The notes under the pieces were generated by a model that saw nothing but the letters and a program-made list of their open reading frames with translations, was not told where the DNA came from and made no database searches. A stretch of DNA of 64,000 nucleotides, taken from NCBI GenBank assembly GCA_903944345.1, contig CAJARJ010000001.1, positions 12,339 to 76,338 on the forward strand. The letters are read 5' to 3'. This DNA is from Candidatus Omnitrophota bacterium (lineage in GTDB: Bacteria; Omnitrophota; Gorgyraeia; Zapsychrales; Fredricksoniimonadaceae). Shown one piece after another: positions 4,898 through 44,167 of this stretch (its first letter is position 1; each line of letters starts with the position of its first letter). Both the position numbers and the translations under genes were made by a program.

Positions 4898-7800
4898 TTA
4901 AAGGCGAATCCAGCCACCAAAAGATTTTACCGGAGCAATTCCTGTTATTACCGGGACAAGGCTGTCAATATTTACAACCTCTGAAATCATGGCCCAATCC
5001 AAAGAGAACGTTTGTCCCGAACGCTCCAAGGGAATTGCACCAGTATCCAGATCGATACCGCCATAACCAGAATCTTCCACAACGGCTGCGGGGTCTTCTA
5101 TTTCCATAAAGTCACCCCCAGAAAGGCGGGAAAAAACCCGGACTCCACCGTCTTCCCCGGTCATCCGAACAGTGTCTATCTGCTTGCTTTCATCTTCTTT
5201 TAAAGCTGCAATAAGATCATCCAGATGCAAAAGACCTTGAATCAGCGGAGCTTTCTGCGTCATTTGCTCAAACAAAAAGTCTGGCATTAACAAATGACCT
5301 GTAGAAGTCCGCCGAGTACTTTCCTCCACAAGGCTCAGTGCATTTTCTCTTGTAGCCGCGACCCGGAAGCTGCCCAAATCTTTAAGCTCGAACAAGCGTC
5401 CTGGCGTAAGCTTATAACCATCTGCAAGCATTATTGTAATCTCATCTCCACCCATCCGGGTCACGAAGTCCTCAATGCCCCAGAATCTTAACTTTTCAAC
5501 AACCCTGTTATATGCCTCTTGAAACTGAATAGTCACCCGGTCAGCCGCCGTTCTCATCAGGGCTTCCCATTGGTCTGAAGAAACCTTGCCCATGCTTTGC
5601 AAAAGAACCTGAAATTCTTCTGCATTCCGCAAACCAAGCCCCACAACATCCATCGCAATGATAGCCGGGTAACGATAACCTGACGCTCTAATGAAAAAAG
5701 CAAATTCGGAGTCTACCTCCGGCAACTTGCTGTTGCTAGAAACAAATTTCACCGCAGTATTTATAAAGGCCTCTGTCCTGGGATCATACGCTATTCTAAA
5801 ATCTTCCTGCTTGTTTCGAATCAATTCACGCAAAGCATTAACCAGAACAAGAACCCGCTGCGCACGATGCCTGGCCCGAATCGGGTCAGTTGACCACTGT
5901 TTGATATAATCTACCGTTTTCAGCAAACTGTAGTACCGCTGAAGTTTCCGATAACTTCCTTCATTGTCAATCAAAAACCGTTCATCAGGACTAAAATCCT
6001 GCCAAGCCGTTCCTTTACGTAACGGTTTCAAAATCTCCGGCTTTAACAACCCGAAAACAACGCCTTCTCGTTCTTGCTCATTAAAGAATCCTTCGCGGGT
6101 CAACTCTTGCCGCAACTGATTCTCTTCGTCAATAACCTCCTGCATATGCTCCTCATAAAACCTGGAGCTGCCGCCAAGCAGTCCTAACGCTGCGAAAGCA
6201 ATCATACGCTCTGCCTGCATAACCGCTTCTGTCTGATTTGTATATCCATCGCCAGTTTCGGCAACACGACTGATCCCATAAGGGAGCGGAAAAAGATATT
6301 CTTCATTAGGACCGGTCAAACTTATCTGCCCTGCAGAAACCTGCGGCGAGGCTAACTCCAGAGAAAGCCTTTCCGTGATCGAAGCAACTGCTCTTTGCCG
6401 GGCACGAACCACGCGCTGCTCAAACTGCAGGTCATTAAAGTCTGCATCATTATCAAAAGTGTAAATCGTGGTCTTGTAATCCGACAACACTATACGGGGG
6501 ACAAGCCCTTCGCTTTGTAAAGCTTTCGTTAAATAGGATCGTGTATCCGCAATCACAAGATTATTCAAAGATTCCCCCAGAATAGCATTAAGATCTTTAA
6601 GCCCCAAACGCCCGGGCGCACTACCCGGACGCTGAAAGACAACGACGCGCCGACCGGAGGGAATGGACATGATCCCCGCCAATGGAGCCGAGCGCAAAAG
6701 TTGCTCGATCAGCACCCTAATGTCCTCAACAGAAATCCGTACTCCTCGCCGATAGAGATCAACAGTCCGGTAAATTCTTTCTATCCAGATAATTTTGCGG
6801 GCCATACGCTGAGCATGTTCCTGCTTCTGCTCAGCCGTCAGTTCGGCCAGATCCAAAGACTCTTCCGGAACAAACTCGAACAACAACGAGGGCTCCTGAT
6901 CTTCCGGAACCAAGGCCATGCCGGTCGCAAACTCCCTGGTTACAGCCAGCAACGCTCCGGATACAACTGCATCCGCAGCTGTCTGCGCCCGATCCAAGGG
7001 AAAATTCTCAACAAAATTAACACCGCCAGAAAAATACCGCCGAGCAATAACTTCTGAATAATCAACGGACACCTCTTCCCGAATCAGAGAAAAAGCTCCC
7101 TTACGAAACGCTTCCATGTAGCGCCCGTAAAGCTGCTTACTGTCATCCGGCCCGGCCAGGTCTATGCCCTTAACCTTGTTCTGCCCGGTATAGCCGGCAT
7201 TAAGAGGACTTCCGGTCAAACCTTCCTTATACCATCTCGCCAAAATAAGCGAATGGTAAATCTGCCGTAGCGGCGCAAAATGATCCGCTTCGTTCACCGC
7301 CTGCTCCAGAAGCGGCACGATCACCTCGCGCAAGATATCATCCATCTGCAAATCCGGCATTGTCTCTGCCGCCGCCGGCTGTTCCCCGGCCTGCGAATGC
7401 GACGAGCGATACTCGCGATCCAGAAGAACCTTTAAGCGGGCTTCAAGAATAATCACCCGGCCGTTATCCTCATATATCCTGGCCTTCGCCGGAGTTACCC
7501 AGACCCTGTTTAGCACATCCGTAGGGACTTCCGTATTGCCGTACATCTCGTAGGCCTTTCGATAAACCTCGGCCCAGAAGCGCTTCCCGCTGACGCTGTC
7601 GGGATGAAGCATAGACGCGGACACCTGCTTAAGCAGATAATCCTGCGCCAGCAAATCTCTTCCCATTTCTGTTCTGGAGAAATCTTCCGGAATAATCCGG
7701 TCTTTGTCATAAGGAGAAAGGTTAACCCATAATTCGCCGGCAGGCACGGTCAGTGCCGCCAGAAAGTAGCGGATCAATCGGGCAGATTCATCTTTAAAAT

Positions 7801-8062
7801 CGTCGGGCTGACCGGAAAGGTTTCCTGTATCGAGAAGAAAGCTGAATTGAAACGGCTTTTGAGGGTCAATTTGCATGCCCTTGAGCACGGGAGGCGTCAG
7901 CGGACGGCCAGGACTGACCATGACACCAGGCATGGGCAATTGGCCAGGAACCGAAAATGTCTCGGCACGAAGCGGTAAAGGTAATGTGAAACAATAAGCT
8001 ACAACAAGAAAACTGGCAATAACCCGACGAAGAAATCCTGCAAAAAAAACAAATACCGACAT
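4898..8062 (-). CDS. Large secreted/membrane-anchored protein, paralog 1 of a three-member family (conserved about 350-aa N-terminal domain, variable middle, shared C-terminal GGIDL tail)
   Basis: Shares PPVLKG...F.F.LD.G...WVNLSPY(E/D)KDRIIPE.F..TEMGRDLLAQDY(V/L)LKQ...(Q/K)RFW..VY...NEG..F..LRQIY.SLILA.WYK...LIREE...RKYF(A/S)GG with ORFs at 8186-10573 and 20655-23990; the track start at 8095 is GTG, so ATG at 8062 is preferred. Confidence 0.8.
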   Translation of the reverse strand: MSVFVFFAGFLRRVIASFLVVAYCFTLPLPLRAETFSVPGQLPMPGVMVSPGRPLTPPVLKGMQIDPQKPFQFSFLLDTGNLSGQPDDFKDESARLIRYFLAALTVPAGELWVNLSPYDKDRIIPEDFSRTEMGRDLLAQDYLLKQVSASMLHPDSVSGKRFWAEVYRKAYEMYGNTEVPTDVLNRVWVTPAKARIYEDNGRVIILEARLKVLLDREYRSSHSQAGEQPAAAETMPDLQMDDILREVIVPLLEQAVNEADHFAPLRQIYHSLILARWYKEGLTGSPLNAGYTGQNKVKGIDLAGPDDSKQLYGRYMEAFRKGAFSLIREEVSVDYSEVIARRYFSGGVNFVENFPLDRAQTAADAVVSGALLAVTREFATGMALVPEDQEPSLLFEFVPEESLDLAELTAEQKQEHAQRMARKIIWIERIYRTVDLYRRGVRISVEDIRVLIEQLLRSAPLAGIMSIPSGRRVVVFQRPGSAPGRLGLKDLNAILGESLNNLVIADTRSYLTKALQSEGLVPRIVLSDYKTTIYTFDNDADFNDLQFEQRVVRARQRAVASITERLSLELASPQVSAGQISLTGPNEEYLFPLPYGISRVAETGDGYTNQTEAVMQAERMIAFAALGLLGGSSRFYEEHMQEVIDEENQLRQELTREGFFNEQEREGVVFGLLKPEILKPLRKGTAWQDFSPDERFLIDNEGSYRKLQRYYSLLKTVDYIKQWSTDPIRARHRAQRVLVLVNALRELIRNKQEDFRIAYDPRTEAFINTAVKFVSSNSKLPEVDSEFAFFIRASGYRYPAIIAMDVVGLGLRNAEEFQVLLQSMGKVSSDQWEALMRTAADRVTIQFQEAYNRVVEKLRFWGIEDFVTRMGGDEITIMLADGYKLTPGRLFELKDLGSFRVAATRENALSLVEESTRRTSTGHLLMPDFLFEQMTQKAPLIQGLLHLDDLIAALKEDESKQIDTVRMTGEDGGVRVFSRLSGGDFMEIEDPAAVVEDSGYGGIDLDTGAIPLERSGQTFSLDWAMISEVVNIDSLVPVITGIAPVKSFGGWIRL

Positions 8063-8185
8063 GACCTCATCCCACCTTCTATTAACCCAAATCACTAATA
8101 ATTATTTGATAAACATATAAAATATAACAAACTATATCCTGTATTATGTACTTTGGCAAGGATCGAGGAAACCCCGAATCCGAAT

Positions 8186-10573
8186 TCAGGGCCGCCCGTT
8201 TGGGAATTCGCCAAAAAACTCGGCGGCATCCAGAACTCGTATAGACCCAATAACCGGAACAAAACCAGCCGAACCTTCTGCCTGTACTGATAGCCCAGTC
8301 GAATAAAGAATATTTGCTCCTGTTTTGGAATCAGACTTATCCGAATCCATTACAACCTCCGTCAGATCAATCCCGCCTTTCGCCGCTTCAGAACTATCCC
8401 GGGCCGTCAAAGAATAACCTGTCGTCAGCAAAGAAAAAGCGGGAGCATTGCTATTGATGTTCAAAAGCAATCCGCCCGTCGCTCCCCAATACTGCGAGAC
8501 TGACACTCCCGTCGTCGGGATTATCCCGGCAGAACTTACGGGCGGATGAACATCCGGTGAAGAAAGTGTCAAGGCTGCGGGAACCTTTCCGGAAAACTGC
8601 CAGAAACTTGTCTCCTTCAGCACCTTGAGCGTCCGTATCGCAAAATGAAAAGACGATGAATTATTGATTGCCACGTCTCCCGCGGGAACAAGAACTCTCA
8701 AATTTGAACCGTATCTCTGCCGAGCGTTTTCCAGCCGGCCTGGACGGATTGAAGAAATGAGCTGCGACTGTTCGTTAGCCCCTGCGTCCAGCAGAATCGA
8801 CGGCAGGTTTAACAACCTCTTTTGGTGCTCCCGAGCTTCATCCAAGGAAATATCTGTCTCCAGATTGGAAAGATTAATCCATTTCAGAATTGTGCCCTTA
8901 AGACGCAACAGGACTGCAATCTGCTTCATAGCCGCGACATTCAAGATGTCAACATGCGCCACAATCACCCTATCCGAAGCGATAAGCGTCTTGAGGGCCC
9001 GGAATTGTTGCTCGTCTATTGCCCACAGCAAAGGAGTCCTCCCTCTGTAACGATACCCATCCTTAATGTAGGATTCAAAGCCGCCATCGCCAAACCTGAC
9101 TGGATCTGCCTCCACGAGCACTTTGCGAACAGCCGCAAGCAACCCGCCAAAATCCTCGGAGTGCTCCACCAAACGTAAAAGTTCAAAAGTCACGCGAGCC
9201 ACCTTGCTGTCAATATCAAGAATGACTATCAGGTCTGCCTCTCTTTCCAGCGCAATATCTATATTGTGAAACGAGCCTATGCCCAGATAGCCTCCGCCTT
9301 TCTCCCCAAAGCCATCAAGCCCTGCCAATAAATAATTAATATCCTCGTTCGACATCATCCATCCCTCCGAGCGGATGCTGATACCGGAATCAATCCACCT
9401 GACTCCTGGCTGCATGGCCATATCCACCTCAAGAAGAACGCCTTCTGCAGCCACCAAATTCGGCACAGAAACAAGATTGGATTCAACTATCTTCATAAGT
9501 GAGCTGACCTGGAAATGGGCTCCGCCAGCGAAATATTTCCGTGATATCAGCCCGGACAAAACATCCTCCTCTTCCCGGACCAACACGCTGACTCCCTGGC
9601 TGAATGTTTTCAGATAACGTTCCCAAATCTTCCGAGCTTCGCCGAAATCACTAATCTGAACCCCCGAAGTTTTGTTACGATCAACGTAGGCCATTGAAAA
9701 AACTGAGTGGCGCATCTTTTTCTTGTACCAGGCAGCCAGAATAAGGGATTGATAAATCTGACGAAGTTGCGAAAAATTCCGGCCCTCGTTGACTTCTTGT
9801 TCCAGAACAGGAATAACGATTTCGCGCAGGACAGATATGGCAATCTCGTTCTCTCTCTGGTCAGGTACCAGCTTATTTCCCTGGTCCGATTTCACACTTA
9901 ACCCTGGTGGGGTCGGCAAAGCGTTGTTCGATGTTGCCAGATAATCCGTCTCCAACTTAACCTTCAGGCGCGAATCCGTGATATAAACTGCGCCGACTTT
10001 AGCATTCTCGTAAACTACAACTTTATCCGGGACAATCCACACCTTGTTGAACGTATTAATAGGGATATCTGTTGTGCCATACCTTTCCTGCGCCAAAGCG
10101 TACACTCTCTGCCAGAATTTCTGACCATTCTCTCCTTGAGGAGATAACAATAACGCTGTGATCTGCTTGAGAACATAGTCCTGCGCCAGAAGGTCTCGAC
10201 CCATTTCGGTCTGCCCGAAAGCTTCGGGGATGATACGGTCTTTTTCATACGGCGAAAGGTTGACCCATAAGTCTTTCTCTGGAATGGTCAAGCTGGCCAG
10301 AAAATATTTGACCAATTTTTCGGATTCTTTTTTCAGGAGACCCTGCTCCCTGATTGACTGCAGAGTTTGCTCCCCAGGATCCAAAATAAAGTCAAATCTG
10401 AGCGGATCGTTAGGATAAACTTTAAGTCCTTTAAGGACAGGAGGATTAAACGCTGCACTCAAGGGCAACATCTGCCCCGAATCTGATGACGGAAACTGAG
10501 CCGAAACCGGACTTTCAATCTGAACAATAAAAACAGAAAGAAAAACCGAAGACAGGAATTTACGTATAAGCAT
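8186..10573 (-). CDS. Secreted protein, paralog 2 of the same family (795 aa), in tandem with paralog 1
   Basis: Signal peptide MLIRKFLSSVFLSVFIVQIESPVSA; conserved N-terminal domain and C-terminal GGIDL tail. Confidence 0.8.
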   Translation of the reverse strand: MLIRKFLSSVFLSVFIVQIESPVSAQFPSSDSGQMLPLSAAFNPPVLKGLKVYPNDPLRFDFILDPGEQTLQSIREQGLLKKESEKLVKYFLASLTIPEKDLWVNLSPYEKDRIIPEAFGQTEMGRDLLAQDYVLKQITALLLSPQGENGQKFWQRVYALAQERYGTTDIPINTFNKVWIVPDKVVVYENAKVGAVYITDSRLKVKLETDYLATSNNALPTPPGLSVKSDQGNKLVPDQRENEIAISVLREIVIPVLEQEVNEGRNFSQLRQIYQSLILAAWYKKKMRHSVFSMAYVDRNKTSGVQISDFGEARKIWERYLKTFSQGVSVLVREEEDVLSGLISRKYFAGGAHFQVSSLMKIVESNLVSVPNLVAAEGVLLEVDMAMQPGVRWIDSGISIRSEGWMMSNEDINYLLAGLDGFGEKGGGYLGIGSFHNIDIALEREADLIVILDIDSKVARVTFELLRLVEHSEDFGGLLAAVRKVLVEADPVRFGDGGFESYIKDGYRYRGRTPLLWAIDEQQFRALKTLIASDRVIVAHVDILNVAAMKQIAVLLRLKGTILKWINLSNLETDISLDEAREHQKRLLNLPSILLDAGANEQSQLISSIRPGRLENARQRYGSNLRVLVPAGDVAINNSSSFHFAIRTLKVLKETSFWQFSGKVPAALTLSSPDVHPPVSSAGIIPTTGVSVSQYWGATGGLLLNINSNAPAFSLLTTGYSLTARDSSEAAKGGIDLTEVVMDSDKSDSKTGANILYSTGLSVQAEGSAGFVPVIGSIRVLDAAEFFGEFPNGRP

Positions 10574-20654: not shown

Positions 20655-23600
20655 TCACCTCTGACCATCAAAGAAAACAGCACCCCCCTGACTGGGACGA
20701 ATAGCTGCGATCTCAGGAAAAAAACCGCGACAGGACTGATACTCTTTCCACAAATCCGATCCGGAATAAAACCCTTTCCAGTCGTCCGTTCCCTGAATTT
20801 CAAGAAGATCTTCTGTTGAATTCAAATCAATACCACCAGGGGCCTCTGCTGCGTCTTCCCCTGAATCAGACATCTCTCGAATCAGGACTTGTCCGGAAGC
20901 ATCAAATTCGAACTCAAGTTTTATTGATCCATAAGAATACAATTGTCTTGTCCCGGCCTTGTACGGCCCCCTTTCATCTCCTCCCTGCCGTTGAAAAAAG
21001 AAATCGTCCCCGGATCGTCGCAACAAAAAAACAAAAGAACCGACGGGCCCCTGTTTCCTGGAGTCCCTCTCCATAGGCACCAAAGCACGCGCCTTACCAC
21101 GATAGAAAACATCCCCTGTCACAGGATCTTCGACTCTGAACCCCTCATTTCTGGAGAACGTAAAGCGCAGGCCAAGAGCCTCAAACCCTTTTTGAACGGC
21201 ATAATAAGAATTCTGTGACATCCCCGGAACACCATCAGGATAGAAAATGGGCCTTAAAGCATCCGCAATCTGAGGAGCAACGGATTGCATGCGTAAAAAA
21301 AGAAACTGCAAATCAAGACTCGGGATTTCGCCGACAAGTTCTTCGCTCATCCAGAAACCATCCGCCACCTTTGTCCCGGTAAGATTATCGTCTCTATAAT
21401 AATCACGCACAATCCTGGCGACTGCATCTATAGCCTTTTCCTGCTCGTCGGACGAGCGAAAAGATGTAAAATATATATTTATCGAATCGTGACGATTCTC
21501 CGGCGAACTGCCCGCCCCCAAAGACGGTCGACCTGATTTGTAATTCCCCTGAATCAACGGACCGGAACCGTCCTGGTCGATAAACAAACGATCCAGAGCC
21601 TGAATGCTTTGCGGATTGACCATAATATTCAGTTTCATACGACCACGCAGCGGCCCCTGGATATTATGACCACCACGAAAGACCCAACCCCCTTGCTCTG
21701 TAACCTCTATGCCCGAGGCAGAAGCCCGCAAAGCCGCCTCAAACTCAACCTCGTTCGATGCCCCGTAAGTTCTTGCTGGAGCATAAGAAGCCTCTGTAAG
21801 ATACATATAATAATCCCTTACAATCTGAAATAATACATCCCCCCATTTCTGCGGAAATCGCGTCAATTGATCAATTCTTTTTTGTTTCACGATATCTGGA
21901 TCAAGCTGCAAGCGTCGATAAACCTTATCAAATTGATCAAAAGAACTGATAAGTTGTTTCGCGCGACTCCTGTCCAGTGGCGAAGCAACAGGCATAGCGC
22001 CATCCCAATACTGTTGAAAGTCTTTTTCTTCAGTATCAAAATAATCCGATAGCGCCCTGTACACGGGCTTGTATAAAGTCGTATCGTAAAATTTTACAAG
22101 CTGGGTAGGAAACGATTGATCATCAGGTATCTTGTGGTCAAAAGTTGTCAGACTCTCTGCCCGATAAAAACTCTCTTCCCCTTGATCAAGCACTCCCCCG
22201 ATCGAATCAAAGATATGCATCTGCTCTGCACCCAGAACTTCATCCAGAGTCACCATCTTTTGGCCATATAATAATTCCACCTCAACCCTGCCAACAAACG
22301 ACTGCAAAAGACTCTCTGCCTCAGTGGTCACAAAAGGAGCCGCAACAATAAAACGGGGTCTTTCTCCTTTTGCGTTCTCCTCAAACCAGGCGTTAACCTG
22401 ATCAATGGTTCTTTTAATCTGCTGGCCTCCATACAAAGCATCGTCAAAAATTACAAAATCCCTGATCCCTGCATTGAACATTTTCCTCAACGCCCCGGTT
22501 CGGCTCTCAGATGCTCCCTGAAAGTATGATGCCATCTGAGGGGTTGTCTGCAAATCCTCTTCCACTAGCGAATAAACCCACCGGCGTGACTTGTGCTTGT
22601 CGAAATCCCACAAAACAGCATATGGCCTCTCTTTGTACGCATGCCGGAGATCATTAAACCTTGACACAAGCCTGTCCAGCTCACTCTTAAACTCGGGGAA
22701 AGAAATATGCCGCAGATTTTCAGCTATCTTTTTCTTAATTTCCCGTATTGACGAATCAGGCTCATTCTTCCACCAAGCCTCAAGCTCCTCTGTTTTCAGT
22801 CTTGGGACAAAGTCCGGTGACTGAAACAAATCAGATTTTAATCCCGGCCCCGTCCCCTTAATAACAGAGACCTCCAGGCCATCATCAACCGGATGAAGTA
22901 TTATCTCGACAAACATATCGCGCCCTGAAACATCTCCGAAGACAACCGGCGGATTTCTAAAGAGAATCGATCCCTGGGAAAAGTCCATATTCATTCCCCC
23001 GGAGAAATACTTTCTCGGGATCACTTCATCCGAATAAACATCCTTCTCTTCCCGGATCAGGTTATAGGCCCCCTGGCGAAATGATTCCGCATACCGCTGC
23101 CAGATTTTTTCCGCTTCCTTCGGATCGTCAATATTGACACCCGCTGTTTTGTTGCGGTTCACATACACCTCCGACAACAACGACTGCCAGATTTTCTTCT
23201 TGTACCATGTTGCCAAAATCAGGGACTGATAAACCTGACGCAGCCGGGCAAAGCCCTCCCCCTCATTGACCTCTTTCTCCAGTGCAGGAACGACCACCTC
23301 ACGCAGGACAGCGCGAGCTATGTCCGATCCAGCGGATACCGTCCGATCCGCTCCAAGTCCGCCTCCTGCCGCCAGATAATCCTGCTCCAGCATAACCTTC
23401 AGGCGTGACTCCGCAATGTACACCGCTCCGGCTCCGGCATTGCCGTACACCACCGCCTTGTCAGGCACAATCCACACCTTGTTGAACGTATCTATCGGAA
23501 TATCCGTAGTACCGTATTTCTCCTGTGCCAGGGCGTAGACTTTCCGCCAGAACCTCTTGCCTGTTTCCCCTTCCGGGTGCAATAACGAAGACGTGAGCTG

Positions 23601-23990
23601 TTTAAGAATATAATCCTGCTCCAGAAGATCCCGGCCCATTTCAGTCTGGCCAAACGCTTCGGGAATAATGCGGTCTTTCTCGTAAGGAGACAGGTTGACC
23701 CACAGGTCTTTTTCGGGAACAGTCAGGCTGGCGAGGAAATACCGGACGAGCTTTTCGGATTCTTTCTTGAGATCCGGTTCTGATCGCGTCCCCGGATCAA
23801 GAATGAAATCAAAGCGAAGAGGTTCTTTCGGATATACCTTAAGTCCTTTCAGCACAGCAGGTTGAAACCCTGCTCCGGAGACAGCCATCCCTCCGGCAGA
23901 AGGCAGAACGGGCTGGGATTGCCCCCAGGACAACTGCTCCAGAAAAAAGACCACCGCAAACAGAACAGACAAAACTTTCCTTATAACCAT
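20655..23990 (-). CDS. Secreted protein, paralog 3 of the three-member family (1111 aa)
   Basis: Signal peptide MVIRKVLSVLFAVVFFLEQLSWG; conserved N-terminal domain with the WVNLSPYEKDRIIPEAFGQTEMGRDLL stretch (identical to paralog 2 except one residue); C-terminal GGIDL tail. Confidence 0.8.
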   Translation of the reverse strand: MVIRKVLSVLFAVVFFLEQLSWGQSQPVLPSAGGMAVSGAGFQPAVLKGLKVYPKEPLRFDFILDPGTRSEPDLKKESEKLVRYFLASLTVPEKDLWVNLSPYEKDRIIPEAFGQTEMGRDLLEQDYILKQLTSSLLHPEGETGKRFWRKVYALAQEKYGTTDIPIDTFNKVWIVPDKAVVYGNAGAGAVYIAESRLKVMLEQDYLAAGGGLGADRTVSAGSDIARAVLREVVVPALEKEVNEGEGFARLRQVYQSLILATWYKKKIWQSLLSEVYVNRNKTAGVNIDDPKEAEKIWQRYAESFRQGAYNLIREEKDVYSDEVIPRKYFSGGMNMDFSQGSILFRNPPVVFGDVSGRDMFVEIILHPVDDGLEVSVIKGTGPGLKSDLFQSPDFVPRLKTEELEAWWKNEPDSSIREIKKKIAENLRHISFPEFKSELDRLVSRFNDLRHAYKERPYAVLWDFDKHKSRRWVYSLVEEDLQTTPQMASYFQGASESRTGALRKMFNAGIRDFVIFDDALYGGQQIKRTIDQVNAWFEENAKGERPRFIVAAPFVTTEAESLLQSFVGRVEVELLYGQKMVTLDEVLGAEQMHIFDSIGGVLDQGEESFYRAESLTTFDHKIPDDQSFPTQLVKFYDTTLYKPVYRALSDYFDTEEKDFQQYWDGAMPVASPLDRSRAKQLISSFDQFDKVYRRLQLDPDIVKQKRIDQLTRFPQKWGDVLFQIVRDYYMYLTEASYAPARTYGASNEVEFEAALRASASGIEVTEQGGWVFRGGHNIQGPLRGRMKLNIMVNPQSIQALDRLFIDQDGSGPLIQGNYKSGRPSLGAGSSPENRHDSINIYFTSFRSSDEQEKAIDAVARIVRDYYRDDNLTGTKVADGFWMSEELVGEIPSLDLQFLFLRMQSVAPQIADALRPIFYPDGVPGMSQNSYYAVQKGFEALGLRFTFSRNEGFRVEDPVTGDVFYRGKARALVPMERDSRKQGPVGSFVFLLRRSGDDFFFQRQGGDERGPYKAGTRQLYSYGSIKLEFEFDASGQVLIREMSDSGEDAAEAPGGIDLNSTEDLLEIQGTDDWKGFYSGSDLWKEYQSCRGFFPEIAAIRPSQGGAVFFDGQR

Positions 23991-31847: not shown

Positions 31848-32693
31848 TCAATATTCACGCCAGGAAAGAATTTTTTCCTGGCCAACAACCACTTCGTAAT
31901 CAACTCCTCTGCGGCCCAGAACATATGTCCTAACCTGCAGCCTGAGCGCTGAAGACTTGACATCCAGCGCCCCGGACAAGGACTGCAACAACGCCAGCTG
32001 GGACTGGCCCAGCATGATTTCATTTGAAAGAGTCGCAGCCAACGCGTCAGCGCTTTCAAAAAAACCGTCGTCGTCCGTCCCTTCTGTCTCGTCGGCTCCG
32101 GCACGAACCGCCAGCACCGCCTGAACCAGATTAATATCAAAACCCAACGCCCCCAGCACAACCGAAGAGGCGGTGTTAATGTTAATTTTGCTCTCACCGT
32201 AAACGGTCAAATGCTCCCGACACTGAGCCCATACCTCGGGAGTGACGCCCTCAACCAGTCGCAATTCTTCCAGAACGGCATAAGGGCGCGCTGAACGGAT
32301 AATATTTTCGGCGATGGCCTGGCTTAACCCGGGAATACGAACCAGGATCTCCTGTGTCGCGGTATTCACGTTAATCCTGGCAGTCTCATCTGCCAGGACG
32401 TATTCGGCCTTACCGGACCCCGCCGCAAAAGCCCTGGAACGACCAAGATCGGTCAAAGCATCGTACTCTTTAACCGGCTCTAGTCGCTCGTCAATGACCT
32501 CCAGCGCAGCCGAACGGGCCAGCGGCCAGCCAAGAACCAGTTCCTCATATTTCTTCAGAATGCGGATCCTGGTGGATATCCCGGAAGAAACACCCAAACC
32601 GAGAATGACAAAAAAAACCATCACCCAGAGCGCCGCGATCAGAATGCTGCCGTTATCCCGCGGGAATAAAAACAACTTTCTCGAATTCCTCAT
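31848..32693 (-). CDS. gspK: GspK-like minor pseudopilin with two helix-hairpin-helix motifs
   Basis: Hydrophobic N-terminus GSILIAALWVMVFFVILGL; HhH-like INVNTATQEILVRIPGLSQAIAENII and ININTASSVVLGALG; internal ATG chosen. Confidence 0.65.
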   Translation of the reverse strand: MRNSRKLFLFPRDNGSILIAALWVMVFFVILGLGVSSGISTRIRILKKYEELVLGWPLARSAALEVIDERLEPVKEYDALTDLGRSRAFAAGSGKAEYVLADETARINVNTATQEILVRIPGLSQAIAENIIRSARPYAVLEELRLVEGVTPEVWAQCREHLTVYGESKININTASSVVLGALGFDINLVQAVLAVRAGADETEGTDDDGFFESADALAATLSNEIMLGQSQLALLQSLSGALDVKSSALRLQVRTYVLGRRGVDYEVVVGQEKILSWREY

Positions 32694-33204
32694 CCTGATA
32701 TTTCCCCCGCAACGAAACTGCCTGGCATAACCCGAGTTCTTTGGTCCACTCTTCACTACGGGTCACCCCTTGCCCGCTGATGACCAGATATTCCAGCGAC
32801 AAGTCCGTCGCAGCCAGCATACGCTTTTCAACAGGAGTTTCCTGCCCGGCACGAATATCCGCAAGCCGCTCGACGCGCCGGACCAGACCCCCCTCGTTCA
32901 CCCTGACTTCATAGGCGACGCGAACCACCTGTCCGTCGTGAACCATCGCAAAAATAAAATGACTGCGATCACCTTCCATTCCGATCTCGGGTACGGATTG
33001 CGCCTGACGAATGTCCCGGGCCACAACTTCCAGATCAATACGGAACATATCCTGCACGCCGCTCGAACTGGTAATCCTGCTCCACAAACGCAAGCCCGAA
33101 ACCAGTACCCCGCCCAAACCTGCCGCCACGCAGCCCAGAATCACGCTGACCAGCATAATCTCGACGAGGGTAAATCCGTAGCGGCGCCGACTACTCTTTT
33201 TCAT
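32653..33204 (-). CDS. Minor pseudopilin (GspJ/PulJ-like) with an N-terminal prepilin methylation motif
   Basis: RYGFTLVEIMLVSVILGCVAAG class III signal. Confidence 0.65.
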   Translation of the reverse strand: MKKSSRRRYGFTLVEIMLVSVILGCVAAGLGGVLVSGLRLWSRITSSSGVQDMFRIDLEVVARDIRQAQSVPEIGMEGDRSHFIFAMVHDGQVVRVAYEVRVNEGGLVRRVERLADIRAGQETPVEKRMLAATDLSLEYLVISGQGVTRSEEWTKELGLCQAVSLRGKYQDEEFEKVVFIPAG

Positions 33205-34109: not shown

Positions 34110-35480
34110 TCACTCAACCGTAAAACTGACTTCGAATTCCGTCAGATCCCGATCCCTGACTTTTTTCTTACGTGTCGAACGTGTCTGGACATCGCGAAAC
34201 CGCTTGATGCCCCCCAGGCTATCAATAAACTGAAACGCTGTAGCCAGCCCGTCCGCCTGGCCGCGCAAAAAAACCTTGCCCTTTTCGTCAAGCGAAACAG
34301 CGGTAATCGCCACCGTATCCGGAATAATGGACTGAACCTCAGACACAATAACCCCGGGGGTCTGCCGGGCATTCAGATTCTTTTTAACAAAATCGGTCTT
34401 GCCCGCCTTGTCGACAACCTCAGAAAGTTCCCGCTCCAGCAGAGCAGTCTTGAACTGGACAGTTTTTAAATGACTTTCCCGAATATATACCTGTGACCAG
34501 TAAAAACCTCCGACCAGAACCAGCAGATAGCAAAACAGGCCGGAAAAGAAAACCAGATCCGCCGTATCCTTGCGCAGGGTCTTGCGAATCTGAATCTCCG
34601 GAAGCAAAAGCGTAGCCTCGGCCGAACCCTCACCGCCAAGGACAGCCATGCTGCTCACGGAAACATCGGATCCAACCCCCTTGGCAGACGACTCCACTGT
34701 AACCGGAACATCAAATTCGTCTTTAAGTTTCTGCTCCAGCAAGCCTGCCGCCTTGGCCCCACAAAGCACAATACCGGCAATCTTCTGGTTCATTTCCTCG
34801 TTATGAAACATGACCAAAGACTGCTTGACCTCGCCGATAAATTTAAGCGACGCCGACTCGAAATCGGAAATAAGGCTTCTGGCCCCGACATTGATGCTTC
34901 GGGAGAACAACAAATTATCTTTCTGCATGATTACACAGTCAGTAAAGCCTGCGTCGATGTCCAGAACCAGCATTAACGCCTCGCTGGCGGGTTGGGAGCG
35001 ATACGCGTTCCAAAGACCGTAACTGGACAAAGTCAGACGCTCAACCAGAAGCCCGGCTTTCTCGACCATAGCCACCTGTCGACGCAGAATGTCTGCCCGC
35101 ACAATAACCACCAGCACACGAGTATAACCGACCTCATCCTTGCCGATAATCCGGTGACCGCTGACCACGTCCTCTTTTTTATAAGGAACCATCCTGACAA
35201 TATTGAGATCCACCATCTGGGCAATTTCGCGCTCGTCTTCGGAAGGAAGGTGCAGATTACGAACAGTTGCGGCATTCCTGGAGATCGACAACGTCACCCG
35301 GCCCGAACGGGAGCGCCAGCGTTTGAGGCAGGAAGCCAGCGCCTGGGCCGAAAGGACATCGTTCTCCTGAACGTCTTCGGCAGCGAACTCTTCGGCACGA
35401 AAGCCTGCTCCGGCAGACTGTGCCTGGGCAACCTTGATATGCTCTCTGGAAATTTGAACAATGTAATTCTGTTTTGCCAT
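34110..35480 (-). CDS. PilM (actin-like ATPase fold)-PilN fusion protein
   Basis: About 330-aa PilM-like cytoplasmic domain, TM helix LVFFSGLFCYLLVLVGGFYW, about 110-aa PilN-like periplasmic domain. Confidence 0.7.
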   Translation of the reverse strand: MAKQNYIVQISREHIKVAQAQSAGAGFRAEEFAAEDVQENDVLSAQALASCLKRWRSRSGRVTLSISRNAATVRNLHLPSEDEREIAQMVDLNIVRMVPYKKEDVVSGHRIIGKDEVGYTRVLVVIVRADILRRQVAMVEKAGLLVERLTLSSYGLWNAYRSQPASEALMLVLDIDAGFTDCVIMQKDNLLFSRSINVGARSLISDFESASLKFIGEVKQSLVMFHNEEMNQKIAGIVLCGAKAAGLLEQKLKDEFDVPVTVESSAKGVGSDVSVSSMAVLGGEGSAEATLLLPEIQIRKTLRKDTADLVFFSGLFCYLLVLVGGFYWSQVYIRESHLKTVQFKTALLERELSEVVDKAGKTDFVKKNLNARQTPGVIVSEVQSIIPDTVAITAVSLDEKGKVFLRGQADGLATAFQFIDSLGGIKRFRDVQTRSTRKKKVRDRDLTEFEVSFTVE

Positions 35481-35484
35481 AAGA

Positions 35485-36705
35485 TCAGCTTACAAACTGG
35501 GTTATCTGGAACGTCGGCAGCAGGATCGAAAGAACAATTCCCCCAAGAACCACGCCGATAACCAGAATCAGTAACGGCTCAAGCAGGGCCGTCACAACAG
35601 CGATATCCGCTTCGATTTGCTGGGAATAGGAGGCCAGAATCTCTTCCAGAACTTCGACCAGCCGACCTGACTCCTCCCCGATTGCAATCATCTTAACAAA
35701 AAAATCCGGTAATTGTGCATAAAGGTTTAAACTTTTTGCGATACCCCCTCCATCCGCAACCGCACGGCAGGCTTTGGTCAAGCCCTCCCGAAGCCGGGGG
35801 TCTTCCATCGTCGGGACAGCCAGCTCGAACGCGGTCAAGGCCGGCACCCCGCTTTTGAGCAAAAGTACCAGTGCCCGCGTAAACTGCACCAGCTGCTGGC
35901 TTGTCATCAGTTGCCGCAAAACAGGAATGCGACGAACAACCTGCCCAAGGGCAAGGGACAGGAACGCTTTCCCCCGGGGATGGAAACAGGCCGCAACCAG
36001 TCCGACCACTCCCAGAAGAACCAGTGGCCAGGAACGATTTAGCAAAGTACTCGTCTGCAAAACAATCCGCGTCGTCAGCGGAAGCTCCCGGCCCAACCCT
36101 TCCAGCAAAGGACGCAGACGCGGTACTACAAAATTCATCAGGACAAACACGCTGAGAAAACCGACACCCCCCAACAACGACGGATACGCCAGAGCGACAC
36201 GAATGCGGCTGCGCATGGCGGCATCGCGGGACATAAAATCGTTAATCTGCTCGAGCGCGGCATCCAGCCGACCACTCGCCTCCCCCGCCCGGATAATATG
36301 CACAAACAAAGCGGAGAAATATTCCGGATAACGCGACAGCGCTTCGGAGAAAGACTTGCCCTCACGCGCCATCGCATGCAGCTGCTGGATGACATCCCGA
36401 AAAACAGGATTCTCGGTCTGCTCGTGAATAATGGCCAGGCCGGAAAGAATTTCCACCCGCGCGCGCGTCAGGGTAGTCATTTTCTTGACGAACAAAAGAA
36501 CATCTGTCTGGGTCACCCGTTTCGGACGAGCCTGACGTGGGCGCGAGGAAGGCATGGCTGCCACGCCGGATTCCGGCGCAATATGAACAGGAAAAAGCCC
36601 GAGGACAGACAGTTTGGAAACAGCATCTGCCTGGCTCTCGGCATCGATGCTGCCCTCGGTTACTTCGGTAAGATTCTTTTTTGCCTTGTAAACAAACCTG
36701 GGCAT
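35485..36705 (-). CDS. gspF: GspF/PilC family inner-membrane platform protein
   Basis: Two T2SF repeats, 406 aa, 3 TM topology. Confidence 0.85.
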   Translation of the reverse strand: MPRFVYKAKKNLTEVTEGSIDAESQADAVSKLSVLGLFPVHIAPESGVAAMPSSRPRQARPKRVTQTDVLLFVKKMTTLTRARVEILSGLAIIHEQTENPVFRDVIQQLHAMAREGKSFSEALSRYPEYFSALFVHIIRAGEASGRLDAALEQINDFMSRDAAMRSRIRVALAYPSLLGGVGFLSVFVLMNFVVPRLRPLLEGLGRELPLTTRIVLQTSTLLNRSWPLVLLGVVGLVAACFHPRGKAFLSLALGQVVRRIPVLRQLMTSQQLVQFTRALVLLLKSGVPALTAFELAVPTMEDPRLREGLTKACRAVADGGGIAKSLNLYAQLPDFFVKMIAIGEESGRLVEVLEEILASYSQQIEADIAVVTALLEPLLILVIGVVLGGIVLSILLPTFQITQFVS

Positions 36706-36710
36706 AAATT

Positions 36711-40659
<3,949 letters not shown>

Positions 40660-40662
40660 AGA

Positions 40663-42162
40663 TCAGGCCGCGGCTTCCTGGCTATTGCGTCTTATATCCC
40701 TGAAAAAGACGGCAAAGGCCTTCTCCACCGCTTCTCCCGTTTCCGGAGCAATATCCTGCGTTTCTTTGATGCGCGTGGTAACAGTCATGTCGTACTCGGT
40801 CAGAAACCGGAAGAAATTATCAATAAAACGGCGCATATGCTGGGGCGAAACCCCCTGCAGGAGATTGCGTTGATAAAGATGAAAAAGCACCATCTGCTCC
40901 TCTAGTGAAACCGGGGCAAAATTGGACTGTTTGAAAAGTTCCTGCAGAACCTCGCCGCGGCGTAAACGCGCGAGCGCTTCTTCGGAAAGATTGGTGCGCA
41001 GTTTGGTCATACGCAGCATTTCGCGATACTGGGAATATTCCAGCCTGAGCCCGGAACTGACACGCCGTATCCCCGGTCCCTGGACGCGGCTGCCGATACG
41101 CGACACCGACAAACCCAGGTCAATGGCAGGCTTGAAACCTTCATGAAACAACGGGGCGCTGATATAAATCTGCCCGTCAGTAATGGAAATAAGGTTCGTC
41201 TGGATATAGCCGGTGATATCCCCCTGCATGGTCTCGACCACAGGCAGAAAAGTCATGGAACCCCCGCCGTGCCCTGATGTCATTCGACCCGCACGCTCCA
41301 AAAGCTGGGAATGCAGATAGAAAATGTCTCCAGGATAGGCTTCGCGTCCGGAAGCTCTCTCCAGCAGCAAGGACATCTGCCGGTACACCCAGGCATGCTT
41401 GGTCAGATCATCAAAAACCACCAGGACATCACGCCCTCTGGACATAAAATATTCACCCAGAGCGGCGGCGGAATAGGGGGCCAGATACTGTTCGGCCGCA
41501 GATACTCCCACAGCGGCCGCCACGATAACTGTGTGCTCGATTGCTCCGCGTTCATTAAGCGAATTGATAATGCGCTGCAAGGCCGCCTGGGGGCCGCCAA
41601 TCCAGCAGTAAATACAAACCACCCCGGTATTCTTCTGGTTGATAATCGCATCAACACAGATCGATGTTTTCCCGGTCTGACGGTCACCAATAATCAGCTC
41701 TCTTTGCCCGCGTCCGACCGGAATGGCCAGATCAATGATCTTGACTCCGGTCGGCATCTGCTGCATAACCGGCTCGCGTTCCATGATCCCCGGAGCCTCG
41801 CGAAAGATGGCCGAACGTCCGCTGACCGTGACCGGCCCGCGCCCGTCGAGCGGATCACCCAGACTGCTGATCACCCGCCCCAGAAAACCTTCACCGACCG
41901 GAATACTGGCCTGTGCCTCGTAAGAAAGAACTTCATCGCCGACCGAAACCCCGTTCTCGTCACCGAAAATCGTGGCCATAACATCTTTTTCATCAAAACC
42001 CATGACCAGACCATGCATACCGGCGGAGAACTGCACCAGCTGGCCATAGGCACAAGTCTGCAGGCCCTTAATACGGGCAATACCGCGGCGGACATCCTTG
42101 ACCCGCCCGATCTCCCGCACATCCAGCAGGGGAACCTTGTATTGTTCCTGTATCTGTGTCAT
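40663..42162 (-). CDS. atpA: F1Fo ATP synthase alpha subunit
   Basis: GDRQTGKTSICVDAIINQ P-loop and overall co-linearity with F1 alpha. Confidence 0.95.
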   Translation of the reverse strand: MTQIQEQYKVPLLDVREIGRVKDVRRGIARIKGLQTCAYGQLVQFSAGMHGLVMGFDEKDVMATIFGDENGVSVGDEVLSYEAQASIPVGEGFLGRVISSLGDPLDGRGPVTVSGRSAIFREAPGIMEREPVMQQMPTGVKIIDLAIPVGRGQRELIIGDRQTGKTSICVDAIINQKNTGVVCIYCWIGGPQAALQRIINSLNERGAIEHTVIVAAAVGVSAAEQYLAPYSAAALGEYFMSRGRDVLVVFDDLTKHAWVYRQMSLLLERASGREAYPGDIFYLHSQLLERAGRMTSGHGGGSMTFLPVVETMQGDITGYIQTNLISITDGQIYISAPLFHEGFKPAIDLGLSVSRIGSRVQGPGIRRVSSGLRLEYSQYREMLRMTKLRTNLSEEALARLRRGEVLQELFKQSNFAPVSLEEQMVLFHLYQRNLLQGVSPQHMRRFIDNFFRFLTEYDMTVTTRIKETQDIAPETGEAVEKAFAVFFRDIRRNSQEAAA

Positions 42163-42169
42163 AGAAGTC

Positions 42170-42886
42170 TTATTTCTTCATTAACTCTGCCGCTTTTTCC
42201 AGACGACCGCGCAAACTACCGTCCATAAGCAGAGTCGAGGCACGCACCACCATGCCGCAGATAAGAGCACTGTCCTGCTCAAATTTAAGTATCGGCGGGC
42301 GCCCCATCTTACCTTCAAGCACCGCAGTGAGGTCGCTGACCCGGAAATCCTGCAAAGGATAAGCGGTAACAACGGCTATTTCGGTCATGACCGAAACCAG
42401 GGAATCCGCCGGCATAACAACAATTTCGGAAAAAAGTTCGTCGATCATTTCTTCGTGCAGGGCCCGCATGGCGCGCGAACTGAAAACCATCCTCGTCATT
42501 TGCAAACCAAAGTCCGCCGCCATAATCCTGTGGGCGGTCATAAGCTGGCGTTCCTTTTTAGCAAACTCCTCGGATTTGCGGGCCGCTTCCTGGGCAAATT
42601 TCTCTTTCATGGAAGCCGTCATTTCGCTGATCAGGCGTGCCGCCTGCTCGCGAGCTTCCTGAATAATCCGTTCGGCTTCCTCGTTGGCGCGGCGAAAAGC
42701 ATCCTCCTGCTCAAGCCGGGCCTTGACCGCCATCTCTCCCAACTCTGTTTCACGGGCAAGGTTGCGCTCATGCAAAACCTTGAGCCGGCCAAGTGCCCCG
42801 TCCAGCTGTTTCTGAAACAACTGACGCAGGAAAAGAAAAAGCAAAAAAAGCGCAACAATCTGAATAATCAGCAATTGAAGGAACAT
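42170..42886 (-). CDS. atpFH: ATP synthase b subunit fused to a truncated delta (OSCP C-terminal domain only)
   Basis: N-terminal TM plus long charged coiled coil (b-like); C-terminal ...ICGMVVRASTLLMDGSLRGRLEKAAELM matches the delta C-terminal motif; total 238 aa, so the delta N-terminal domain is absent. Confidence 0.65.
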   Translation of the reverse strand: MFLQLLIIQIVALFLLFLFLRQLFQKQLDGALGRLKVLHERNLARETELGEMAVKARLEQEDAFRRANEEAERIIQEAREQAARLISEMTASMKEKFAQEAARKSEEFAKKERQLMTAHRIMAADFGLQMTRMVFSSRAMRALHEEMIDELFSEIVVMPADSLVSVMTEIAVVTAYPLQDFRVSDLTAVLEGKMGRPPILKFEQDSALICGMVVRASTLLMDGSLRGRLEKAAELMKK

Positions 42887-43373: not shown

Positions 43374-44167
43374 CCCTTGCCCGCAGGAGGAGCGCCTGCT
43401 GACGGGCCCTTGCGGTCAGCCCCGGTACCGGCAGCCGGAGTGTCGCCCGACGATCCTGACGCTCCGGCAACAGCGTTTAACTGCCTGAGCCAGACAAAAT
43501 AGAAACTTGCCCCCAAAATACCCAGAAAAAGCATAACGGCACCGACGAACTTGAAAATCGCTCCGGTGGAATAAGCCCGCGACTGGCTCATAAAACCACG
43601 GGCCAGATCCAGATCCGCACGAATTGACGCCAGAATATTAAGATGCTCGCGATAAGAAGAAATATGCTGTTCGGGATTGGCCGGAGGGAACCTTGCCGCT
43701 GACTCGATCTGGTCGAGCTTGAGCGTAATCTCTTTATACATGCCTTCAAAACGATCGGCATACTCTGTATTCTTGAGCTGTTTTCCTATCCGCTCCAGTT
43801 CGTGCCGAAGCGTTTCGATCTCATTAACCGGAACCGACCAGATGTCGCGCAACTCGATGTCCTGTTCAAAAGTCTCACCCGGTTTGAGCTCGAAATCACC
43901 CGACACAAAATAAGACCCCTGCTGACTATCATACACCAGCTGCAAATCACCTTTACCCAACACATCATCGGGCTTGACCTCTTTGGGCAAATACGCCTTG
44001 ATCGAAGCAATCTGCGCGTCTTCTTTAGAAGGGTTGGCAGCCATAACCTTGAGCACAATAGCCGCCCGCAGATCTCCCGGAAGACCGGTCAGAAGAAAGA
44101 GCGCTCCCGCAGACACAAAAAGGAGCCGCCACAATAGAATGCCACACGCATTATTCCTTGTACTCAT
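43370..44167 (-). CDS. Hypothetical membrane protein (N-terminal signal/TM, soluble domain, C-terminal TM, Gly/Ala/Ser/Pro-rich tail) encoded between the giant gene and atpC
   Basis: ORF with overlaps at both ends (17 nt with the giant gene, 4 nt with atpC); no family recognised. Confidence 0.5.
   Translation of the reverse strand: MSTRNNACGILLWRLLFVSAGALFLLTGLPGDLRAAIVLKVMAANPSKEDAQIASIKAYLPKEVKPDDVLGKGDLQLVYDSQQGSYFVSGDFELKPGETFEQDIELRDIWSVPVNEIETLRHELERIGKQLKNTEYADRFEGMYKEITLKLDQIESAARFPPANPEQHISSYREHLNILASIRADLDLARGFMSQSRAYSTGAIFKFVGAVMLFLGILGASFYFVWLRQLNAVAGASGSSGDTPAAGTGADRKGPSAGAPPAGKG

Follow-up and report, generated by a model that had tools for sequence, protein, structure and literature searches.

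The window analysed here, a stretch of 64,000 nucleotides of a Candidatus Omnitrophota bacterium assembly (GCA_903944345.1, contig CAJARJ010000001.1), carries three paralogous genes whose products end with a similar C-terminal module, hereafter the tail. The three genes, and all of their features mentioned below, lie on the minus strand: the open reading frame (ORF) of paralog 1 is located at 4898-8095 and encodes 1065 amino acids (aa), that of paralog 2 at 8186-10573 (795 aa), and that of paralog 3 at 20655-23990 (1111 aa). The N-terminal regions of about 350 aa align well, the middles are unalignable and the C-termini are alike, pairwise identities among the three proteins being 46-69% in the N-terminal domain (N-domain) and 28-40% in the tail. 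The N-domain is found at 7022-7927 in paralog 1, where it ends with RRYFSGG, at 9521-10477 in paralog 2 (RKYFAGG) and at 22995-23894 in paralog 3 (RKYFSGG). When six-frame segments of the window were scanned with a hidden Markov model (HMM) of this domain, only these three ORFs matched (E-values of 4.5e-139, 1.7e-169 and 1.4e-172, respectively).

Each protein starts with a putative Sec-type signal peptide, recognised by its sequence pattern, at 10499-10573 in paralog 2 (MLIRKFLSSVFLSVFIVQIESPVSA followed by Q), at 23919-23990 in paralog 3 and, when counted from Met12, at 7964-8062 in paralog 1. For the latter gene, the GTG start at position 8095 is probably too far upstream (8062-8095), as a start at Met12 (position 8062) gives a normal signal peptide, MSVFVFFAGFLRRVIASFLVVAYCFTLPLPLRA followed by E; the gene is 1054 aa long in one public assembly. 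Directly after the YFAGG of paralog 2 lies a junction segment ("module A", 9386-9526) with the strand GVLLEVDMAM, which ends in the motif D-x-A-M, and equivalent segments are located at 6887-7027 in paralog 1 and at 22860-23000 in paralog 3. The original prediction described the middle regions, referred to below as the cargo, as unrelated, and the Pfam scan agrees: paralog 2 carries DUF7790 (8408-9385), paralog 3 shows a weak PRTase-CE-like match (20868-22859), and paralog 1 shows no known domain (5093-6886). Promoter and terminator scans around the genes gave counts at chance level.

The tail of paralog 1, taken from 10 aa before the pentapeptide GGIDL to the last codon, occupies 4901-5092, and those of paralogs 2 and 3 occupy 8189-8407 and 20658-20867. 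The GGIDL box itself is located at 5048-5062, 8363-8377 and 20823-20837, at distances of 54, 63 and 60 residues from the respective C-termini, and the six-frame translation of the window contains exactly these three copies of the pentapeptide. A hydrophobic motif (SLVPVITGI, GFVPVIGSI or GFFPEIAAI, conforming to the pattern (G/S)-φ-φ-P-x-I-x-x-I) follows 33-37 residues past GGIDL, within the strands SLVPVITGIAP (4931-4963), GFVPVIGSIRV (8234-8266) and GFFPEIAAIRP (20694-20726). A tail HMM was built from 66 homologues, window sequences being excluded, and scanned against 1,179 six-frame segments of the window. It matches the tails of paralog 1 (E 1.7e-7, residues 1012-1061), paralog 2 (E 6e-9) and paralog 3 (E 2.4e-7), the next best segment having an E-value of 0.95; the three matches stop 4-8 aa short of the stop codon. 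As a profile independent of the window matches the three tails and nothing else, the similarity that the original prediction had noticed is confirmed, and its coordinates and motif strings are correct. It had also held that a giant protein encoded in the window (4,918 aa) is devoid of the tail, and the HMM scan indeed detects neither the tail nor the N-domain in this ORF (44151-58907). Similarity by chance or low complexity can be ruled out by the E-values of the independent profile together with the family-wide conservation described below. Finally, the paralog 3 tail is identical to the last 75 residues of a database protein of 1105 aa (P0011).

On sequence grounds, the three tails are divergent copies of a C-terminal module of 60-65 aa, the family consensus of which is much sharper than the copies in the window. 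In its short form, this consensus reads GGIDL, a variable stretch, IKFxxDPAML, then PGFVPVIINIQP, and FLG. In its fuller form, it often starts with D-x-A-M, followed by 5-12 residues, GGID(L/F) and about 14 variable residues, continues with G-x-x-I-K-F-x-x-D-P-A-M-L-x-Q-L-Q-N-A, and ends with P-G-F-x-P-V-I-I-x-I-Q-P-x-x-x-L-x-x-F-L-G, after which 0-20 unconserved residues are found. Two glycines are the sole invariant residues of the tail. The earlier description of the region as a Ser/Gly-rich acidic stretch suits the lineage of the window; across the whole family, a defined motif is seen there and not a low-complexity sequence.

Whether other proteins end with the tail had been set beforehand as a test. 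When 1.84 billion cluster representatives were searched exhaustively with HMMER, 4,781 matched at E<=1e-3 (1,766 of them at E<=1e-10), and the match was located at the C-terminal end in 150 of the 150 matches listed. A search with paralog 2 retrieved more than 3,100 relatives, which cover the query only over its N-terminal 40-50%, and every name given by the source is Omnitrophota or Omnitrophica. Inspection of the 120 best N-domain homologues showed the tail module in 103, at a distance of 45-85 residues from the C-terminal end, and the remaining ones appear truncated. Finally, a genome scan with the canonical tail sub-alignment, conducted on one genome per species, yielded 218 confirmed sites, of which 79 loci were kept; 0-17 aa separate the end of the module from the stop codon in each of the 86 tail-bearing ORFs found there. 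Several genomes carry at least 5-8 loci each among the loci listed.

Most of the 79 loci (53) come from metagenome-assembled genomes labelled Omnitrophota or Omnitrophica. Another 24 bear the label "uncultured Planctomycetales" and belong to third-party assemblies (binchicken; loci L004-L007, L010, L015 and others), one is labelled "uncultured Alphaproteobacteria" (L051), and one simply "bacterium". We suspect that the labels other than Omnitrophota are naming artefacts for Omnitrophota bins. Neither the tail nor the N-domain has a match in Pfam or NCBIfam (at E<=0.1 for the three window proteins, and at E<=1 for two canonical tails and two full-length members) or among PDB sequences. The family is likewise not described in the searchable Omnitrophota literature, in which its motif strings are without match. 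The tail family is thus real, ancient and abundant in the lineage labelled Omnitrophota, and undescribed in the resources searched. Among paralogs of a same genome at the family loci, identity at the protein level is similar for the two ends, with 57-71% in the tail and 54-69% in the N-domain. Tail DNA identity between such paralogs is 61-72%, that is, no higher than protein identity, which argues that tail conservation is selected at the protein level and does not result from gene conversion.

It is close to certain that this conserved C-terminal family module is coupled to the N-domain. Among the genome loci with an N-domain start, 41 N-domain ORFs have an intact 3' end, and the tail is present in 37 of them. 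The four exceptions are split ORFs, two of which are long (in L052 and L068) and are overlapped just downstream by a tail-bearing ORF. Reciprocally, most tail-bearing proteins of at least 800 aa possess the N-domain, and the short tail-only entries look like 5'-truncated fragments beginning at internal methionines. As the coupling holds both ways, the unit to be considered consists of a signal peptide, the N-domain, the junction, the cargo and the tail. In this unit, the N-domain spans about 330 aa, ends with (R/K)(K/R)YFxGG, and is placed after a signal-peptide-like N-terminus. A hydrophobic h-region is present at the N-terminus of 89 of 102 members, 82 of which have a small-x-small site as well. 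The signal peptide typically ends with AxA, followed by Q or E and then by L-P-x-P-G-x-M. Judging from these patterns, the N-termini of the family look like classical Sec signal peptides.

Between these two conserved ends, the cargo varies in length from about 200 to 2,200 residues and is highly diverse in content. Its Pfam matches include adenosine deaminase, phosphoglycerate kinase, CheR and other methyltransferases, GNAT acetyltransferases, NUDIX hydrolases, HATPase, GGDEF, Ser/Thr and ABC1 kinases, HAD, glycosyltransferase, epimerase, M48 peptidase, TPR and HEAT repeats, and DnaJ J-domains. Much of the cargo thus corresponds to cytoplasm-type enzymes, the chemistry of which often needs ATP, S-adenosylmethionine (SAM) or acetyl-CoA; this is surprising in exported proteins, unless their site of action is the interior of another cell. 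For example, DnaJ J-domains, an ABC1 atypical kinase and SAM methyltransferases are found as cargo in L009 (1992-2801), L059 (306-4439) and L078 (76-5505). J-domains require Hsp70 and ATP, and are unexpected behind a Sec signal peptide.

The tetrapeptide D-x-A-M occurs 338 times in 134 full-length members, against 14.8 occurrences expected from shuffled sequences (a 23-fold enrichment, approximately). The motif clusters at cargo boundaries: 136 copies lie in the 80 aa that follow YFSGG, 54 in the 30 aa that precede GGIDL and 67 in the tail itself, as DPAM, the rest being located inside the cargo (78) or in the N-domain (3). Family-wide, the junction segment follows the pattern GG-x-x-φ, D-x-A-M, strand, D-x-A-M. 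In the window, the motif is represented by EVDMAM in paralog 2 (in the strand of residues 378-387) and by LDWAM in the tail of paralog 1 (4901-5092). The motif may serve as a linker cap or as a processing site. A hydropathy screen further revealed that, in 17 of 150 members (about 11%), the 130 aa following the N-domain junction include a hydrophobic segment that resembles a signal peptide or a transmembrane segment. Many such segments read as a second, internal signal peptide of Sec or Tat type, with a Tat-like RRxFL in P0020, P0033, P0059 and P0257; other examples include P0055, P0105, P0160 and P0228, and no window paralog is among them. These putative internal signal peptides give the impression that complete precursor ORFs were taken up as cargo.

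The structure of the tail was predicted with AlphaFold, both alone and in a full-length protein. The canonical tail alone (86 aa, alignment of 70 sequences) has a predicted local distance difference test score (pLDDT) of 66 and a predicted template modelling score of 0.27, with one short helix (PAMLKQLQ) and no β-strand. The isolated tail is thus predicted, at moderate confidence, to be without an autonomous fold. Full-length paralog 2 was modelled from an alignment of 80 sequences aligning at both ends. In this model, the N-domain has a pLDDT of mostly 70-95 (residues 40-340) and is mixed α/β, with long helical hairpins. The tail segment FVPVIGSIRVL (residues 771-781) forms an 11-residue β-strand (pLDDT of about 65), and the junction segment GVLLEVDMAM (residues 378-387) forms another one of 10 residues. 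As the former is the sole strand of the tail, it must be paired with a segment from outside the tail. Comparison of the full-length model with the PDB gave no significant fold match. The junction also shows a weak local profile match to the IKFxxDPAML part of the tail (17 columns, hhalign probability 47%, E 2e-4). With a match of this extent and probability, the idea that the tail arose by internal duplication, as a copy of the junction segment after YFSGG, was rejected and kept as a weak lead.

The interpretation we favour, with a probability of roughly 40%, is that tail and N-domain together form one frame for trafficking or display, each supplying one half, and that the tail acts by strand docking. 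The tail would then be neither an autonomous domain nor a membrane-type sorting signal. Its GG(I/V)D(L/F) box and its hydrophobic strand, PG-F-x-P-V-I-I-x-I-x-P, would bind a partner surface, the likeliest partner being the strand located just after the N-domain of the same protein. The cargo would hang as a loop insertion from the scaffold closed in this way, and once exported by the Sec pathway, the closed scaffold would be the unit recognised for secretion, display on the surface or delivery. What the data show is a module that is strictly C-terminal and coupled to the N-domain, N-termini that resemble signal peptides, a diverse cargo and a tail with no autonomous predicted fold; physical docking, the identity of the partner and any trafficking role are what we infer.

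Several points weigh against docking within the frame. The missing fold of the isolated tail could reflect a shallow alignment, and docking itself is deduced from the secondary structure of one model of moderate confidence (pLDDT of the tail strand of about 65). The similarity between junction and tail is local and weak. When mutual information between the N-terminal region and the tail was calculated with average product correction on 158 sequences, the top pairs all involved high-entropy linker columns and are thus uninformative. In addition, a few tail-bearing ORFs (in L011 and L036) seem to be devoid of the N-domain. Finally, if the internal hydrophobic segment found in about 11% of the members spans a membrane, then no clasp in cis can form in those members.

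An alternative with a lesser chance of being correct, although we regard it as possible, comes close to the original prediction of a C-terminal sorting, secretion or anchoring signal similar to known C-terminal domains (CTDs). Here, the tail would be an independent signal, read in trans by a dedicated outer-membrane machinery once the protein has passed the Sec pathway, and maybe then cleaved like the CTD of type IX secretion; the N-domain would serve another purpose, for instance translocation or binding. In favour of the original prediction, the module is strictly C-terminal, strongly conserved, and carried by proteins with Sec-type signal peptides and variable middles. The strong conservation of its motif over thousands of proteins and its many copies per genome also suit a signal read in trans, and the distribution appears to be of the kind expected of a trafficking element. 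Similarly, an extended, foldless tail is the expected look of a β-augmentation ligand for a receptor, the invariant Gly-Gly pair could mark a processing site, and the window encodes both an apparatus resembling type II secretion systems (T2SS) or type IVa pili (T4aP) and a secretin. However, the tail is never found as a portable tag on unrelated N-termini, and a signal in trans leaves the obligate N-domain partner unexplained. As the tail is nearly always coupled to the same N-domain of about 330 aa, either end, or both, could be the sorting determinant. A single receptor reading the entire module is hard to reconcile with a tail identity of 28-40% within one genome, and no candidate sorting enzyme or transporter is conserved beside the window genes, the neighbours of which are housekeeping genes. 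No known sorting family or domain of Pfam or NCBIfam is matched either, and the tail possesses neither a transmembrane segment with a basic end nor a terminal aromatic residue.

These last observations can be detailed by comparison with known systems, among which the closest in function are the CTD of type IX secretion, MARTX and LapA-type proteins, the N-proximal headers of two-partner secretion, CdiA and Crinkler proteins, and donor-strand complementation in pili. From its sequence features, the family would belong to the class of terminal modules that frame polymorphic exported proteins, with no detectable homology to any described member of this class. The CTD of type IX secretion systems (T9SS; Por_Secre_tail, in Bacteroidota) is similarly phylum-restricted, strictly C-terminal, about 60-100 aa long and present many times per genome, on carriers with Sec signals and very diverse functional domains. 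The proteins that carry it have unrelated N-termini, and PorU cleaves it off. A passage of PMC11285876 describes it as an autonomous Ig-like 3+4 β-sandwich. In contrast, the Omnitrophota tail has no profile match and no predicted autonomous fold, is tied to one N-domain, and accompanies a cargo of largely cytoplasm-type enzymes. Identity with the T9SS CTD was thus rejected, on the lack of a profile match and of a seven-strand Ig-like β-sandwich in the AlphaFold prediction of the tail alone (of moderate confidence). The Pfam matches of the window include T2SS/T4aP-type genes and a secretin, and no T9SS component.

Sortase and exosortase signals (LPXTG, PEP-CTERM, GlyGly-CTERM) also provide a C-terminal signature common to many exported paralogs. 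They are tripartite, with a motif, a transmembrane helix and a terminal basic cluster. No hydrophobic window (17 aa, Kyte-Doolittle >=1.7) was detected in the window tails, nor any match to an NCBIfam sorting signal, and this possibility was discarded. The tail instead ends in a variable, non-basic extension of 0-20 aa, the last residues being mostly G, S, L or P. An anchor of the autotransporter or trimeric autotransporter type (the β-signal of outer membrane proteins, a β-barrel segment with an aromatic last residue) was discarded as well: the last residue is F or W in only 3 of 134 members, no autotransporter Pfam match was obtained, a single strand is predicted in the tail, and a variable extension follows its conserved part.

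The giant adhesins of the LapA type and the MARTX toxins resemble the present family in that two conserved ends act together in export or retention around a variable centre. These proteins rely on type I secretion without a Sec signal peptide, and contain repeats of the RTX or other types. The abstract of 10.1101/198937 bears on their secretion and repeats. The Omnitrophota proteins differ from them by a Sec-type signal peptide, a single GGIDL box and the lack of any sequence relationship. Type I secretion is thus disfavoured because Sec signal peptides are present, and an RTX-type signal was rejected on the same ground and on the occurrence of one GGIDL box per protein, with no tandem GGxGxDxUx repeats. 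A likeness is also seen with TpsA, CdiA, polymorphic toxins and the Crinkler effectors of oomycetes, which combine a signal peptide, a common N-proximal trafficking domain and swappable payloads, with orphan payload fragments beside full genes. However, in these systems the variable part is C-terminal and has no conserved C-terminal cap. A two-partner secretion (TPS) or haemagglutination-activity domain was rejected, as no Pfam match was found and the N-domain is predicted to be α/β with long helices and not a β-helix.

A further alternative, which we regard as improbable, is donor-strand exchange: the tail strand of one member would insert into the N-terminal scaffold of another, and paralogs would build non-covalent heteropolymers displaying many enzymes on the cell surface, a "giant protein by assembly". 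Donor-strand complementation, known from chaperone-usher pili and from the type V pili of Bacteroidia, likewise relies on a foldless terminal hydrophobic β-strand that completes the sheet of a partner. An acceptor-like N-domain and a donor-like tail are here obligately coupled, the tail is foldless alone and forms a strand when a partner is available, and genomes carry several to many paralogs. The same phylum also makes covalent giant proteins, and the domain list given for them in 10.1101/2023.11.21.568195 (HATPase_c, NUDIX, GGDEF, TPR, HAD, PPDK_N) overlaps the cargo domains found here. However, no sequence or fold relationship links the family to these pili, and its members are large enzyme-bearing proteins, not pilins. 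Polymerisation is purely hypothetical, such a polymer being unreported, and an AlphaFold model of a monomer, in which the strand is in cis, cannot distinguish docking in cis from docking in trans.

The loci themselves give indications on how the cargo may have diversified. Tail-bearing ORFs devoid of the N-domain are located directly downstream of a full-length family gene in L011 (4147-6198, in frame and one stop codon after the upstream gene), in L036 (4600-6195) and in L040 (5761-6204). This arrangement resembles the orphan cassettes of polymorphic toxin loci. The N-terminus of the L036 ORF is similar to that of type IV pilins or pseudopilins (AFTIIELVIVISVL), with no Pfam match. Conserved ends, tandem paralogs, orphan fragments and signal peptides retained in the cargo together suggest that recombination shapes cargo diversity. 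The stronger proposal that the conserved 5' and 3' ends matter mainly as DNA, as homology arms for cargo swap like those of contact-dependent inhibition or Rhs loci with orphan modules, and that the peptide has little function, is very hard to sustain: extreme cargo diversity between two conserved ends, tandem paralogs, the orphan ORFs of L011, L036 and L040, and cargo with a retained signal peptide, suggestive of the capture of entire ORFs, speak for it, but tail DNA identity between paralogs (61-72%) not above protein identity, with no sign of recent gene conversion, and amino-acid motifs conserved across very distant genomes speak against it, so that it may explain cargo diversification and not the conservation of the peptide.

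The remainder of the window holds the secretion-related genes mentioned above. T4aP/T2SS-like genes encode a GspK-like protein (31848-32756), PilM/N (34110-35480), GspF (35485-36705) and GspE (36711-38390), and an F-type ATPase operon (38387-42886) directly adjoins them; a secretin gene is located at 60763-62511. This layout agrees with the "type-4a pilus plus type-2/3 F-ATPase" arrangement reported in Omnitrophota (PMC10066038). The giant ORF (44151-58907, minus strand) encodes four Laminin_G_3 and four DUF2341 stretches, together with Kelch and Kre9/KNH Ig-like domains. Of the 32 intervals of 2 kb into which the window was divided, 31 have a negative GC skew (cumulative value of -3.5), and the minus strand carries nearly all of the long ORFs; skew and gene strand are consistent with a single replichore arm in which genes are co-oriented with replication.

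Omnitrophota are uncultured, widespread and ultra-small bacteria, thought to be predators or parasites (PMC10066038), and their known means of acting on other cells have so far been pili and giant surface proteins. In this context, the frame formed by N-domain and tail may, rather tentatively, be the substrate signature of an unrecognised, phylum-specific pathway of export, delivery or assembly, and mark an effector repertoire whose cargo would be delivered to, or displayed towards, prey. Under this hypothesis, the cargo enzymes (kinases, methyltransferases, acetyltransferases, NUDIX hydrolases, J-domains and GGDEF) would have been captured as whole ORFs, and strand exchange between tail and N-domain might assemble multi-enzyme arrays. 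The sequence signature picks out thousands of proteins bearing signal peptides and would thereby give a handle on a candidate secretome or effector set, and the tail and N-domain profiles can be used at once to catalogue the family. If the frame proves to be a new sorting or assembly system, it would represent a new class of terminal-domain-directed protein trafficking in diderm bacteria.

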